Of a stretch of 27,667 nt of DNA, positions 15,702 through 20,205 are shown in pieces. The notes beneath the pieces are model-generated. The model did no database searches. It was not told where the DNA came from and saw only the letters and a list, made by a program, of their open reading frames with translations. Position 1 is the stretch's first letter; each line of letters begins with the position of its first letter. The translations under genes were made by a program, and so were the position numbers. The stretch lies in the NCBI GenBank assembly GCA_038998365.1, contig JAVZHJ010000001.1, positions 1 through 27,667 on the forward strand. The letters run 5' to 3'. This stretch comes from Candidatus Aenigmatarchaeota archaeon (lineage in GTDB: Archaea; Aenigmatarchaeota; Aenigmatarchaeia; CG10238-14; SCSR01).

Positions 15702-15775
15702 ATCATCACCGAATTTAGATTATTTAAACACTAAAAATATATATTTTTCAAACTTATTTAAAAAGCTTATGGTTC

Positions 15776-16012
15776 CTAGGCTGAAGATTCTAGCTTGCCA
15801 CCACGATGCACATATTCAAAAATCACTTCTTTTTTTACTGATTCAGGAATGTTTTTAAGAATGACTTGACCTAAAACTTTTTTCAGCTCTGAGTTACTTA
15901 AGCTTCTGAGCATATTTCTTATTTCATCCAGTTGAATTTCATCTATTTCTCCATACAAATCTTTAACTCTGCTTTGAGAATATTTTGCAATTAGCTCTAA
16001 AACTTCAGCCAT
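15776..16012 (-). CDS. Hypothetical protein (78 aa)
   Basis: Starts immediately after the rps27e stop; no motif recognised. Confidence 0.65.
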   Translation of the reverse strand: MAEVLELIAKYSQSRVKDLYGEIDEIQLDEIRNMLRSLSNSELKKVLGQVILKNIPESVKKEVIFEYVHRGGKLESSA

Positions 16013-16207
16013 TTAGCCAAACCTCTCTAAAACTTTTCCTTTAACTCTAGCTTCTCCACCAGTTGGCTCTGCCAAAATTTCATTACACTTCAAGCATTTT
16101 ACAAGTGTGGTAGCTTTGCTGAAAATCACTTGCTCATTCTTACACTTTAAACACAAAACTCTCAAGAACTTGCTTTCAGGCAAAGTCACCAAGTTTTTAG
16201 TCTTCAT
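16013..16207 (-). CDS. rps27e: 30S ribosomal protein S27e
   Basis: [20 protein letters not shown]...[16 protein letters not shown]; directly follows rpl44e. Confidence 0.95.
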
Positions 16208-16488
16208 TTCTTCACCAGTTCAAACTTTTTAGCACGCCAGCCTTCGCCTTTAACATGCATTTTCCCACAAACTTTACACTTGAACCTCAAATCAACTTTT
16301 TTTGTTGGTTTTTCCCTTCCTTTTGGGTTTGAACGTGGGAACGAGCCGTAACCCTTCATCTTTCGCTTGAAAATTCTCTGACCATGAGTCATGCTACCCT
16401 TTGCTCTTCTCTTGGCTATTTCAACTTCATGTAGCTGGTGTGACTTACAATACGGACAATAAGTCCTGATTACTTTTGGGAATTTCAT
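16204..16488 (-). CDS. rpl44e: 50S ribosomal protein L44e (complete copy)
   Basis: [33 protein letters not shown]; SD AAGGTG at 16497-16502. Confidence 0.96.
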
Positions 16489-17572
16489 ATCTTATACACC
16501 TTAATGTCTTTTATTTTAATTTATAACTACTTAGTAAAGTATTAAGTTTATATTTTTTATCTGAATTGACGAAATTTATTTTATTCCTAAATAATTCTAA
16601 ATTTTTCTTTCCAGATATACACAATCTATATCTTCTTTTGTAATAACTATTAACTTCCCTTATTTTACCACTATTAATTCCTAATTCTAATAACATGGTT
16701 TTGATGATTTGAATTAACTTTTTATTTGTCATTTCAATAATTATTTGATATTTTGGTATTGTTACACAACCTTCATCATCAAATAAAGCCTGTAGAAAAA
16801 TCTCTTTTTGACCATCGACTAAATTTGCTAAAAAATCTAAGGATTTTATGCTTTTAAAGCTCAAAAACTCATTCAATAACATACCTATAATGGTAGGACA
16901 TCTGATGTCTTTAACCCCATTTCTTTGTGTTCTTTTATAAAGGTTTACATTTCCGAAAACATTTTGTATAAGTTCAGAAAATCTATTTAAAAGTTCTTCT
17001 GATTTATTCGTATACCAAATTATTGGACAATTAGATCGAAATTCTATGCAACCATCTCCCAATAGGTGGCCCAACAATTCTACCAAACTGCTATTCAAAG
17101 TTATGGGAAATTTTGGATTATTTATGGGCTTAGATAGACTACCACTGCATTTTATTTCTTTTAAATTATCGTTTAGAAGTTTCTTAAATTTTATACTCAT
17201 ATCGTGAGGCAATAAATTCAAGATATCCTTAATAAGTTTGAGTTGAACAAAAGATTTACCAGTTTTGTATTCTTTAATATGAGTAAGTCTTTTTCTTTTA
17301 AGCATAATTGATAATCTATTCTGAGTACCAACAAATTTTACACTGTAATCAAAGAAACTTCTAATAACAGCTGGGTCTATTTTCACATAAATTCGCTCAT
17401 TAGTCAAATCCCATAAGTTTAATTCTTTTCTCACATTCATTTTAACTCCTCTTTCATATTTCATTCTAATAAAAACAACTCTCTTATATTTTATTTACTC
17501 TTTTGGTAAGTGCATTTCCGATATTTCCGATAAACTCTGAACTAATTTTTAAAATTTTTTATCAACTTCATG
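16421..17572 (-). mobile_element. Putative homing-endonuclease insertion in rpl44e carrying a replacement rpl44e 5' end; bounded by an 11-bp direct repeat
   Basis: tcaacttcatg at 16421-16431 and 17562-17572; ttttgggaatttcata at 16474-16489 and 17615-17630. Both pairs are offset by exactly 1141 nt. The interior is AT-rich. Confidence 0.7.
16511..17464 (-). CDS. Free-standing two-motif LAGLIDADG homing endonuclease (intein-DOD-like, no splicing domain)
   Basis: LLGHLLGDGC and FLQALFDDEGC motifs; C-terminal YRLCISGKKNLELFRNKINF. The likely real start is ATG 17440 (GAGGAG at 17446-17451). No Hint-domain termini seen. Confidence 0.88.
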   Translation of the reverse strand: MKYERGVKMNVRKELNLWDLTNERIYVKIDPAVIRSFFDYSVKFVGTQNRLSIMLKRKRLTHIKEYKTGKSFVQLKLIKDILNLLPHDMSIKFKKLLNDNLKEIKCSGSLSKPINNPKFPITLNSSLVELLGHLLGDGCIEFRSNCPIIWYTNKSEELLNRFSELIQNVFGNVNLYKRTQRNGVKDIRCPTIIGMLLNEFLSFKSIKSLDFLANLVDGQKEIFLQALFDDEGCVTIPKYQIIIEMTNKKLIQIIKTMLLELGINSGKIREVNSYYKRRYRLCISGKKNLELFRNKINFVNSDKKYKLNTLLSSYKLK

Positions 17573-17629
17573 CTCAGTATGCTTCTTACAGTAAGGGCAA
17601 TAGGTCTTGACTAGTTTTGGGAATTTCAT
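17549..17629 (-). pseudogene. rpl44e: Truncated rpl44e 5' stub (26 aa: [26 protein letters not shown])
   Basis: 16/22 aa and 51/68 nt identical to the start of the full rpl44e; has its own AAGGTG SD at 17641-17646; homology ends at 17562. Confidence 0.9.
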
Positions 17630-17666
17630 AAAAGATTTAACACCTTCTATCAATTTAAATTTTTAA

Positions 17667-17903
17667 CTATTCTTTTAAAGGATCAATTTGGTAGAGTTTT
17701 TTACCATAAGTGGCTCCACAATCGCATCTTAAAAATTTTAAGTAGTCGTCAAACCTTCTTTTAATTCCCAATTCTTCCCTTTTTTCCTTATCAACAATGG
17801 TTATTTTCCTACAATTCTCACAAAAAAGGTAAATATCACCCAAAAAATTATATTTCAAAGATTTTTTCAGTTCTTTTAAAGCTAATAACAAGGTTTTAAT
17901 CAT
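17667..17903 (-). CDS. Hypothetical Zn-binding protein (CENC...CDCG, 78 aa)
   Basis: Two Cys pairs; AT-rich; lies between GINS and the rpl44e stub. Confidence 0.6.
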   Translation of the reverse strand: MIKTLLLALKELKKSLKYNFLGDIYLFCENCRKITIVDKEKREELGIKRRFDDYLKFLRCDCGATYGKKLYQIDPLKE

Positions 17904-17940
17904 AATTAATGATAAAAAGAAAAACTATTTAAAAGCATTG

Positions 17941-18486
17941 TTACTTGCTAACTTTAAACTCTTCAGCCAAACCTTTCTCTATCAAAATCTTAGCATTTTC
18001 TTCGGGAAGCTTAGCTATGTCGCCTTTTTCAAAAGGTCCATAAGTTTTCATATCTGCACCAACAAACTCAGGAACAGCCTCTTTGAAAACCACCATGCTT
18101 ATGCTTTCTTTTTCTTCAAGTTTTTCCATCATTTCTTTCAAAAATTTTTCTCTCCTGCTTTTTATAATTTCTTTAACTTTTTCGAAAAATTCTTTTTCTT
18201 CGTCAGTTAAATTTTCTACACTCAGCCCAACTCTTGCTGAATTTATAGCTTGAGTTACAATTTTTCTCTCCCTCCTGTTAAAAATGTCTTCAATTAACCT
18301 TTCTATATTCTTCAGTTCTACAGAAGCTTTTCTGTCTTCCATTTTTTCCAGAATTCTTCTCTTTTGCTGTAAATAATTCTTAACGTTTTGATAAAAATTT
18401 TCTGGTAGCTTAGAGAGCTTTGGCGATCTCTCTTCTTCCCTCTGAATTTTCCTTATCAATTCAAAGGTTATTGTTTCTTCGGCCAT
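17941..18486 (-). CDS. gins51: DNA replication complex GINS subunit (Gins51/Gins15 type)
   Basis: ITFE.IRKIQREE..S.KLSKLP.NFY, RRERKIV, LTDEEK, B-domain VPEFVG.D.KTYGPF.KGD. Confidence 0.9.
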   Translation of the reverse strand: MAEETITFELIRKIQREEERSPKLSKLPENFYQNVKNYLQQKRRILEKMEDRKASVELKNIERLIEDIFNRRERKIVTQAINSARVGLSVENLTDEEKEFFEKVKEIIKSRREKFLKEMMEKLEEKESISMVVFKEAVPEFVGADMKTYGPFEKGDIAKLPEENAKILIEKGLAEEFKVSK

Positions 18487-18888: not shown

Positions 18889-20205
18889 TTAAGTTCTTTT
18901 CCTTTTTTCTTTTCTGATCTTAAGCCTTTTGAAAGGATAATTAACAGGGTTTTTAATCACTATCTTATCACTGTTGTTAGTACAGAATTCATCCGGTTTG
19001 CATATACCTATGGCCTTATAGAAATTTTCATTGTTACAGTTTGGTGGCAATAAATTCCTCTCTTGCCTAAAATGCCACCTGAGCTGAGTTCTTAGATAGC
19101 TGTTTCTTAAGGGTGGTATATTCTTGGAATTCCAATCCATTATTTTATTTTCTATTTTATCCAAGTTCCATCCCATATTCTTTAAAAAATTTGTCAGGAC
19201 AAAAAGACTTCTCTTCCTCCCATCACTCAAGCCTTGGAGAATATTCTTGACACATGGGGGGAAATAATCTTCCGGTACTGCTTTTATTCTTTTCTTCACC
19301 AAAATCTTTGGTATTTCTTCCTTTGCCTCTACCAAATGTTTAGAGCTCCAGTCCAAAGCTTCTATAACCAATGCTTCAGCATCGTGCAAGCTTGATTTTG
19401 GAATCAAAAATTTTTCTTCGACTTTAGCTTTTTCTGGCAAAGCTTGTTGAACTTCAAACCTTTCGACATCTTCCGGTTTTATCGGCAAGCTAACATTCAA
19501 AGTTTTTTCATGCAAACTGTAAGGAAGCCTGAACAAATGTCTTAAGCCAAAGATGTCCATGGAAATTATTTTGAAAGGAGCGATTTCTCCATTTTCCATG
19601 ATTTCTTTCAAAGGCTTACCTATCTTACTGGCAATTTCTTCAGGTCTAAATAAAGCTGAAATTTCTTCTTTTAGCTGGTCTTTTATGTACCATTTAACAT
19701 ATTCTATTATTTTCTGTAAGATTTCCGGATATTGAGCAGCCGTAGGCTGAGCATTGATTTTTTCTGGCAAAGCTTCAAAAGGTATGCCAACATGAAAAGA
19801 AGAGCCGCCAGTAAATTTAACGCTATAACTGGAAACACCATGATCCTTGAAAGCTTCTATAAGTTGCTTGACTGTTAGCTTAGCAATTTCGAAATCATCA
19901 ACGTCAACATCAAACAAAACATCCCATCCAATCCTCATGGCATCAAGCTGGGCTTTGCTCAAGCCAACATCAAGCTTCATTGGTTGTTGCCATCTTTCAA
20001 GCGAGCCATGAAAAGAGATTGCACCTTTTGCTACAGACTGAAGAACATCTTGAATGTACTGTAGCATATCAGGCCTTTTTCCAAAAATCCCATCACGGTA
20101 AACAGCAACTACTTCCCTATTCTTTGCAGCTTCCACTATAGCTTTAAGAACTGATTCACGAGAATACCAATTCCAAATTCTCTGAAATTCTATCATGGCA
20201 ATCAT
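18889..20205 (-). CDS. priSL: DNA primase, DPANN-type PriS-PriL fusion
   Basis: PriS catalytic motifs WDVLFDVD, KFTGGSSFH and RHLFRLPYSLH; PriL-CTD FPPCV, GRKRSLF, PPNC and the Cys cluster. The start may be at the second or third Met. Confidence 0.9.
   Translation of the reverse strand: MIAMIEFQRIWNWYSRESVLKAIVEAAKNREVVAVYRDGIFGKRPDMLQYIQDVLQSVAKGAISFHGSLERWQQPMKLDVGLSKAQLDAMRIGWDVLFDVDVDDFEIAKLTVKQLIEAFKDHGVSSYSVKFTGGSSFHVGIPFEALPEKINAQPTAAQYPEILQKIIEYVKWYIKDQLKEEISALFRPEEIASKIGKPLKEIMENGEIAPFKIISMDIFGLRHLFRLPYSLHEKTLNVSLPIKPEDVERFEVQQALPEKAKVEEKFLIPKSSLHDAEALVIEALDWSSKHLVEAKEEIPKILVKKRIKAVPEDYFPPCVKNILQGLSDGRKRSLFVLTNFLKNMGWNLDKIENKIMDWNSKNIPPLRNSYLRTQLRWHFRQERNLLPPNCNNENFYKAIGICKPDEFCTNNSDKIVIKNPVNYPFKRLKIRKEKRKRT

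Follow-up and report, generated by a model that had tools for sequence, protein, structure and literature searches.

The DNA analyzed here is a stretch of 27,667 nucleotides (nt) from a Candidatus Aenigmatarchaeota archaeon (assembly GCA_038998365.1, contig JAVZHJ010000001.1, positions 1 to 27,667), which we call the window, and our subject is a free-standing gene for a putative LAGLIDADG homing endonuclease that lies between two copies of the 5′ end of rpl44e, the gene for ribosomal protein eL42. All features between 16013 and 17666 are on the minus strand and are listed in gene order; rpl44e positions are numbered from the ATG of the copy concerned, and comparisons with G002, a sister genome in which the site is empty, were made by blastn and alignment.

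17630..17666, minus strand: native upstream region of rpl44e with a TTTAAAT box and GAAGGTG; 60/60 nt before the stub ATG are the same in G002
17562..17629, minus strand: rpl44e-homologous stretch of the stub (native nt 1-68); homology to G002 stops at nt 68
17549..17629, minus strand: stub open reading frame (ORF) of 26 codons, 22 of them rpl44e-like, followed by D-K-K-F and TAA; preceded by GAAGGTG, which resembles a Shine-Dalgarno (SD) sequence
17441..17561, minus strand: foreign AT-rich leader of 121 nt, without a counterpart in G002 by blastn
~17445-17520, minus strand: promoter-like conserved block within the leader, which aligns with the related loci L074 and L072
16511..17440, minus strand: LAGLIDADG gene of 309 codons from ATG 17440; Pfam LAGLIDADG_3, E 3.9e-18, in two stretches
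16489..16510, minus strand: junction of 22 nt with AAGGTG, a replacement SD for rpl44e
16204..16488, minus strand: complete rpl44e, overlapping rps27e; Pfam Ribosomal_L44, E 2.6e-23
16327..16488, minus strand: foreign, co-converted rpl44e nt 1-162 (codons 1-54); 77.2% identity to G002
16432..16443, minus strand: recoded patch at codons 16-19, KHTE to SHQL; 10/12 nt unlike the stub
16204..16326, minus strand: resident, native-like rpl44e nt 163-285; 98.3% identity to G002
16013..16207, minus strand: rps27e, native, the downstream partner of rpl44e; Pfam Ribosomal_S27e, E 1.6e-22; ~99% identical to G002

The stub, AT-rich spacer, LAGLIDADG ORF, new SD and complete rpl44e had been reported in a first-pass annotation made from the sequence alone, and each was found where that annotation had placed it. 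Its observation of collinear rpl44e starts 1141 nt apart was likewise borne out, both by a repeat search (46 nt at 85%) and by comparison of the first 66 nt of stub and full copy (49/66 equal, 74%); a tblastx search of one cassette flank against the other gives E 2.6e-11. The 11-mer CATGAAGTTGA terminates both copies of the duplicated part, and removing the 1141 nt leaves one in-frame gene, as the annotation had expected; its further claim that the empty allele consists of the stub joined to the EIAKRR... of the window did not stand, because foreign DNA extends past CATGAAGTTGA to ~nt 162 and the true empty allele is therefore G002-like over nt 69-162. The 11-mer is conserved coding sequence and not a target-site duplication.

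The longest endonuclease frame (17464..16511) has 317 codons; translation probably begins at ATG 17440, preceded by GAGGAG. As a spot count in the annotation had indicated, the endonuclease gene is low in G+C (~0.20-0.31 along its length, versus 0.37-0.42 in rpl44e and rps27e). The leader holds a tandem pair of ATCGGAAAT, and the cassette also carries a TTATAAAT-like box as a candidate transcription start signal for rpl44e; a sigma-70 promoter and terminator scan was uninformative for this archaeal host (12 sites versus 8.8 expected). The native upstream motif is kept ahead of rpl44e in the same-genus loci L009-L015, and in the window the native promoter and SD may now serve the stub alone, possibly with read-through into the cassette. 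No second rpl44e was found in the genome (622 kb in 60 contigs, 86% complete).

Comparison with G002 resolves the locus into resident and imported parts. In particular, i) the upstream flank is 98.5% identical to G002 over 1568 nt, and the match breaks off exactly at rpl44e nt 68; ii) the stub agrees with G002 at 63/66 nt and 22/22 residues, whereas the 5′ end of the full copy agrees at 50/66 nt; iii) the 3′ part of the full copy agrees at 119/122 nt, and nt 163-554, comprising the rest of rpl44e together with rps27e, contain 4 mismatches; iv) mismatch density differs between the tract from nt 1 to 162 and its flanks (Fisher p 2.5e-25); and v) this tract is 72-77% identical to all eight same-genus species (77% to G002 and 72-75% to the others), while over the same nt 1-162 G002 is 84-87% identical to the seven other same-genus species. 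The 27 nt that directly follow the recoded patch and span the stub junction (gene nt 58-84) are equal in the full copy and the native allele. Because the stub matches G002 and the full-copy head does not, the stub is the resident head; and because the imported tract ends at ~nt 162, the sole functional rpl44e is a hybrid with a foreign head and SD and a native tail. The imported block, from ~17561 to 16327, is a co-conversion tract made up of the leader, the endonuclease gene, the SD and 54 codons, and it was closed at ~nt 162 by homologous recombination within rpl44e. The annotation had proposed that a sister genome with an empty site should match the stub at its 5′ end and the full gene in its 3′ part, as G002 does, and that relatives matching the downstream copy throughout would speak for a decayed local duplication, a pattern that we did not see. 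We conclude that the locus is a real, recent and well-bounded homing scar.

The distribution of the insertion among relatives is that of a mobile element, polymorphic for presence and absence at one homologous site and accompanied by co-conversion of flanking host sequence up to a sharp boundary. The cassette is present in one of the nine genomes of the genus, the window genome itself (G000), and rpl44e is uninterrupted and single in 40/40 relatives with a match. No LAGLIDADG gene within 1.5 kb and no upstream stub was seen at any of the 29 rpl44e loci inspected (8 from the same genus and 21 from further relatives), and the 118 genomes of the order yielded no other LAGLIDADG match on a contig known to carry rpl44e.

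The protein has two LAGLIDADG motifs, LGHLLGDG (D137) and LQALFDDEG (E231), each ending in an acidic residue, and D137, G138, D229, D230 and E231 are invariant in an alignment with eight homologs. An AlphaFold model (predicted local distance difference test 88.9, predicted template modeling score 0.86) shows the pseudo-dimeric alpha-beta-beta-alpha-beta-beta-alpha fold; its core (~residues 120-310) superposes on I-DmoI with a template modeling score by target of 0.72-0.77 and a root mean square deviation of ~3 Å (Foldseek E ~3e-8), and residues ~10-110 are predicted to form an extra helical N-terminal domain of ~110 residues. PI-PfuI is the best match in both sequence and fold (profile search of PDB sequences, E 3e-13; Foldseek, E 1.5e-10). 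Going by motifs and model, the gene looks intact and its product is predicted to be catalytically competent. The classical homes of archaeal LAGLIDADG genes are rRNA introns and inteins. The window enzyme shares the single-chain, two-motif LAGLIDADG fold with I-DmoI (2vs7), I-Tsp061I (2dch) and PI-PfuI (1dq3), but those three are encoded inside rRNA bulge-helix-bulge introns or inteins and are spliced out, whereas the window enzyme is free-standing, has the extra N-terminal domain, and is associated with replacement of a gene terminus instead of splicing.

The closest homologs of the endonuclease, at seven other distinct DPANN loci, also sit at rpl44e. Among 5.8 billion proteins the top matches are 59, 42, and 40% identical (loci L067, L070, and L068/L069, respectively), all of them directly before rpl44e; scanning genome and metagenome contigs for the pattern brought in L072 and L074 (38%), L071 (36%), and L153 (35%), four further rpl44e-linked loci. 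Screening of 158 loci, the window and 157 fetched relatives, left eight distinct rpl44e-linked loci including the window, and in all eight the endonuclease stop codon falls between -23 and +22 nt from the rpl44e start. In a tree of 123 distinct free-standing related endonucleases, the window, L067, L068, and L070 form a clade (Shimodaira-Hasegawa-like approximate likelihood-ratio test 99), and the tree sorts by the identity of the downstream gene (proteasome alpha or psmA, hjc, rpl44e, alaS, glmS, topA, and ribH), requiring 12 label changes versus 39 in shuffles (0/200 as low). Judged by this phylogeny and by gene neighborhood, rpl44e is the dedicated site of the lineage that includes the window endonuclease. 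The best homolog in the 118 same-order genomes is 36% identical and has another gene context. One of the rpl44e-linked loci, L153 (JAUYCX010000115.1), is filed under a Candidatus Omnitrophota bacterium metagenome-assembled genome, encodes an archaeal-type rpl44e (eL42) behind its LAGLIDADG cassette, and is probably a mis-binned archaeal contig.

The conserved block of the leader aligns with L074:2932-2998 (score 61, reached by 0/200 shuffles) and with L072:1177-1219, and the leader is therefore part of the element; it is conserved between cassettes whose proteins are less than 40% identical, and its nearest matches lie in a different endonuclease subclade from those of the protein, suggesting modular recombination between cassettes. 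Ser16 of the recoded patch is found as well in the rpl44e of the closest cassette, L067. In L071 (2280-2318) a promoter/SD-like motif followed by ATGAAATTCCCAA, at a possible start remnant (2280-2292), gives way to unrelated sequence; this stretch lies ~220 nt before the rpl44e-linked endonuclease gene, includes an 11-nt exact match (E ~0.04 in 960 nt), and may hold an rpl44e stub of 4 codons.

Taken together, the mosaic and the gene neighborhoods make it probable that a mobile cassette, made up of its own promoter-like leader, the LAGLIDADG gene, an SD and a rpl44e head of ~54 codons, entered the rpl44e of this Aenigmatarchaeota lineage, which belongs to the DPANN archaea, from an unsampled related archaeon by double-strand-break repair, that is, by intronless homing. 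The enzyme would cut cassette-free rpl44e alleles near nt ~45-90; the right break end would then invade a cassette-bearing donor and copy leftwards, taking in the head of rpl44e, then the endonuclease gene and finally the leader; and the left end, lacking homology to the upstream flank of the donor, would be joined illegitimately at or near the break, which would account for a stub that is retained as far as nt 68. In the L067 and L068 cassettes GINS is directly upstream, whereas in the window genome and G002 a 78-codon gene intervenes. The recoded codons 16-19, just 5′ of the junction, might protect the new allele from recutting together with the splitting of the site, and this patch is a plausible candidate immunity determinant from its sequence and position. 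Invasion of an essential gene in this way would be harmless without an intron or intein because the cassette supplies a working gene start. The annotation had suggested that the splice-free homing strategy acts on this archaeal ribosomal-protein gene, and the G002 mosaic supports that suggestion, with cleavage and immunity as its inferred steps. The stub junction shares possible microhomology with the 3′ end of GINS in L067 (18/20 aligned positions); 12/500 shuffles score as high, and we regard this match as suggestive only and have made no use of it.

We wish to set out plainly the observations that count against homing as just described. A close donor was not found among the 5.8 billion proteins, and the protein of the nearest cassette is only 59% identical. 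Of the seven other rpl44e cassettes, six have no convincing stub upstream and the seventh (L071) has one of at most 13 nt; a stub is therefore not obligatory to the mechanism, although its absence in 6/7 also argues for left junctions that are specific to each event. The stub/leader junction is crossed by one short public contig only (run X1, by 11 nt, at 17551), which matches the stub, is then unlike the window leader for ~100 nt, and may stem from a unitig artefact or from a variant of the cassette within the population. The target site, the cut position and immunity are our inferences. Finally, the identity of the 27 nt at the junction in supposedly immune and sensitive alleles is a weak point for any model in which the site is destroyed, so that immunity would need to rest on codons 16-19 and/or on sequence beyond nt 85, or the enzyme may be inactive or tolerated.

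Several of these observations bear on a variant of homing in which the donor cassette already had a stub, both junctions were homologous (the left one falling in the 68-nt stub or in the upstream flank), and nt 68 is a fixed insertion point. In its favor, the boundary divides 27 nt of perfect conservation, as an insert does with a classical homing site, and alaS and hjc cassettes also have stubs, 12-24 codons long; but the full copy retains all 27 nt, so that the site would not have been destroyed, and the left boundary is not constant in the family, since six of the seven other rpl44e cassettes are stubless and the possible stub of L071 ends after ~13 nt. The three mismatches between stub and G002 in 66 nt, versus 1.5% in the flank, could hint at donor-derived patches, but the excess is not significant (~1 expected, 3 seen). 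We consider a stub brought in by the donor possible, though unlikely.

Adjacency to rpl44e has been kept across lineages whose endonucleases are only 35-59% identical, and this could also mean that the LAGLIDADG protein has been domesticated or has lost its activity and is a regulator or maturase-like factor, resident and long tied to rpl44e, with the stub as an old scar. There are DNA-binding regulators with a co-opted LAGLIDADG fold, WhiA turns up among the fold matches, and the extra helical N-terminal domain of ~110 residues would suit such a role. A long residence is improbable, however, for a gene found in 1/9 genomes of the genus and, among the other examined genomes of the order, never beside rpl44e; the nearly undecayed stub (63/66) and the sharp bounds of the tract point to a recent event, the catalytic D and E are invariant, and the G+C content of the gene is below that of its neighbors.

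An artefact of metagenome assembly, joining two organisms at the conserved rpl44e, has to be considered with a metagenome-assembled genome, especially as related strains or species co-occur in the same hot-spring runs and the right boundary lies in sequence common to both alleles. The public runs that hold the window are hot-spring metagenomes; their Logan contigs over the locus are short and of low depth, and one from run X3 is the empty-site allele of a relative. Against a chimera, run X1 contains an independently assembled Logan contig of 610 nt that reads from the endonuclease 3′ end through the foreign head and the native tail into rps27e, and a second contig that extends 11 nt beyond the stub/leader junction; a like architecture occurs in unrelated assemblies. 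The stub/leader junction offers no misleading homology, and an assembler could not have invented it because the 11-nt repeat is shorter than assembly k-mers. We regard a chimeric origin as very improbable.

A local tandem duplication of the rpl44e 5′ end, in which the upstream copy decayed and the endonuclease inserted between the copies, would account for the direct repeat that flanks the insert, but it is scarcely credible when the upstream stub is the copy that matches the sister genome (63/66 nt, 22/22 residues), the functional copy is the divergent one (50/66), and the divergence runs 94 nt past the duplicated part. A spliced element (a group I or II intron, an archaeal bulge-helix-bulge intron or an intein) is suggested by the nearest solved relatives, the intein PI-PfuI and the intron enzyme I-DmoI, but was rejected as next to impossible: no Rfam family matches 15900-17950 even at E <= 1 (bulge-helix-bulge introns were judged without explicit folding), Pfam finds LAGLIDADG_3 only and no Hint/intein domain, the endonuclease ORF stands apart, with an SD and start of its own, out of frame with rpl44e and with stop codons between, and splicing is unneeded because the downstream rpl44e is complete with its own SD, start codon and head.

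The design seen at rpl44e recurs at other genes, as emerged when flanks were compared for 133 free-standing loci. Heads of alaS, 12-22 codons long, are stranded ahead of cassettes in L039 (1088-1122), L075 (2655-2729), and L076 (2651-2731), and an hjc head of ~24 codons is stranded in the same way in L089 (2643-2747); in both the alaS and the hjc cassettes an extra small ORF, winged helix-turn-helix or ribbon-helix-helix-like, precedes the endonuclease gene. Loci L081 and L119 are mirror cases, in which a tail remnant of the upstream gene lies behind the endonuclease (33 amino acids at 64% and 46 amino acids at 52%, respectively). DPANN genomes had been singled out in the annotation as the place to look for LAGLIDADG genes flanked by partial duplicates of neighboring core genes, and these six loci answer that description. 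The window genome itself has a second free-standing LAGLIDADG gene of 302 codons, on contig C18 (L002, 67-975) directly upstream of a proteasome alpha gene (1084-1746), a pairing seen in nine other DPANN loci; a further and more degenerate LAGLIDADG ORF is present at L005.

We think it rather likely, with less assurance than for the single event at rpl44e, that DPANN hold a large, undescribed superfamily of free-standing LAGLIDADG cassettes, in which each lineage is welded to one housekeeping gene (rpl44e, alaS, hjc, proteasome alpha, glmS, topA, or ribH), at its start or sometimes at its end; which would spread without introns or inteins by overwriting the gene terminus, including the translation-start signals, with its own recoded copy; whose stubs would be fresh scars that mark the break point; and which would routinely drive horizontal transfer and mosaicism among the core phylogenetic-marker genes of ultrasmall archaea. 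Within the library searched, the literature yielded no account of such cassettes from archaea or DPANN.

Three neighboring features of the window may be recorded here. A second bounded patch of divergence from G002 (15743-15934, ~75% identity over ~190 nt with flanks at 98-100%) sits in the 3′ part of a 78-codon gene downstream of rps27e (ORF 15776-16012, minus strand), extends ~30 nt past its stop, and may be a recombination tract or a hypervariable gene end. Between GINS and rpl44e lies another ORF of 78 codons (17667-17903, minus strand), zinc-ribbon-like (CxxC...CxC) and without a Pfam match, which occurs in the window genome and G002; because GINS directly precedes rpl44e in L009 and L013-L015, we take it to be a lineage-specific insertion at the same hotspot. 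At 18889-20205 (minus strand) a single ORF of 438 codons matches both the primase small-subunit and the large-subunit Pfam families, which suggests a fused PriS-PriL primase.

The nearest known analog of the rpl44e cassette is the gene hybrid formed by mobile open reading frames (mORFs) in fungal mitochondria, known from atp6 of Allomyces macrogynus and from atp6, atp9, cox2, and nad3 of Glomus sp., where the native remnant matches sister species and the inserted foreign carboxy-terminus does not (PMC3630166); free-standing GIY-YIG or LAGLIDADG genes accompanied by partial duplications of atp9, atp6, and cox1 have also been described (PMC7487136). As in the fungal cases, an endonuclease ORF brings a foreign copy of the terminus that it displaces, the native remnant stays behind and matches sister taxa, no splicing is involved, and the whole is read as horizontal transfer with co-conversion. 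The fungal elements replace the carboxy-terminus and their ORFs are often in phase with the host gene, neither of which is seen at rpl44e; the window cassette is instead a mirror image, replacing the 5′ end (amino-terminus, SD and start codon), its endonuclease is a separate, unfused ORF with its own leader, and its target is the gene for a cytoplasmic ribosomal protein on an archaeal chromosome.

A second comparison is with the free-standing Seg and Mob endonucleases of T-even phages (for example MobE), which practice intronless homing (PMC2790892, PMC2988022). Like the window gene, theirs stand free between conserved genes and are patchily distributed among relatives, and the enzymes are thought to cut the endonuclease-less allele in a neighboring conserved gene, with co-conversion of flanking markers. 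Seg and Mob enzymes belong to the GIY-YIG or HNH families, however, and not to LAGLIDADG; their genes normally sit cleanly in intergenic regions without a gene stub such as the window retains; and they act in mixed phage infections, whereas the window case would have played out between cellular chromosomes.

The significance of the rpl44e cassette is that a homing endonuclease can colonize an essential, intron-free gene of an archaeal chromosome at no cost to the host, by supplying a working head and ribosome-binding site, thereby carrying a mechanism known from fungal mitochondria over to the chromosomes of cellular archaea and to gene 5′ ends. With its sharp bounds, the foreign tract points to rpl44e nt ~45-90 as a concrete and testable target for a LAGLIDADG enzyme that is new, derives from a thermophile and possesses an additional N-terminal domain. 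Should the pattern prove general, parts of the ribosomal-protein and tRNA-synthetase marker genes of DPANN would have been repeatedly overwritten by foreign sequence, which would bear on tree building and on estimates of gene flow in these archaea.

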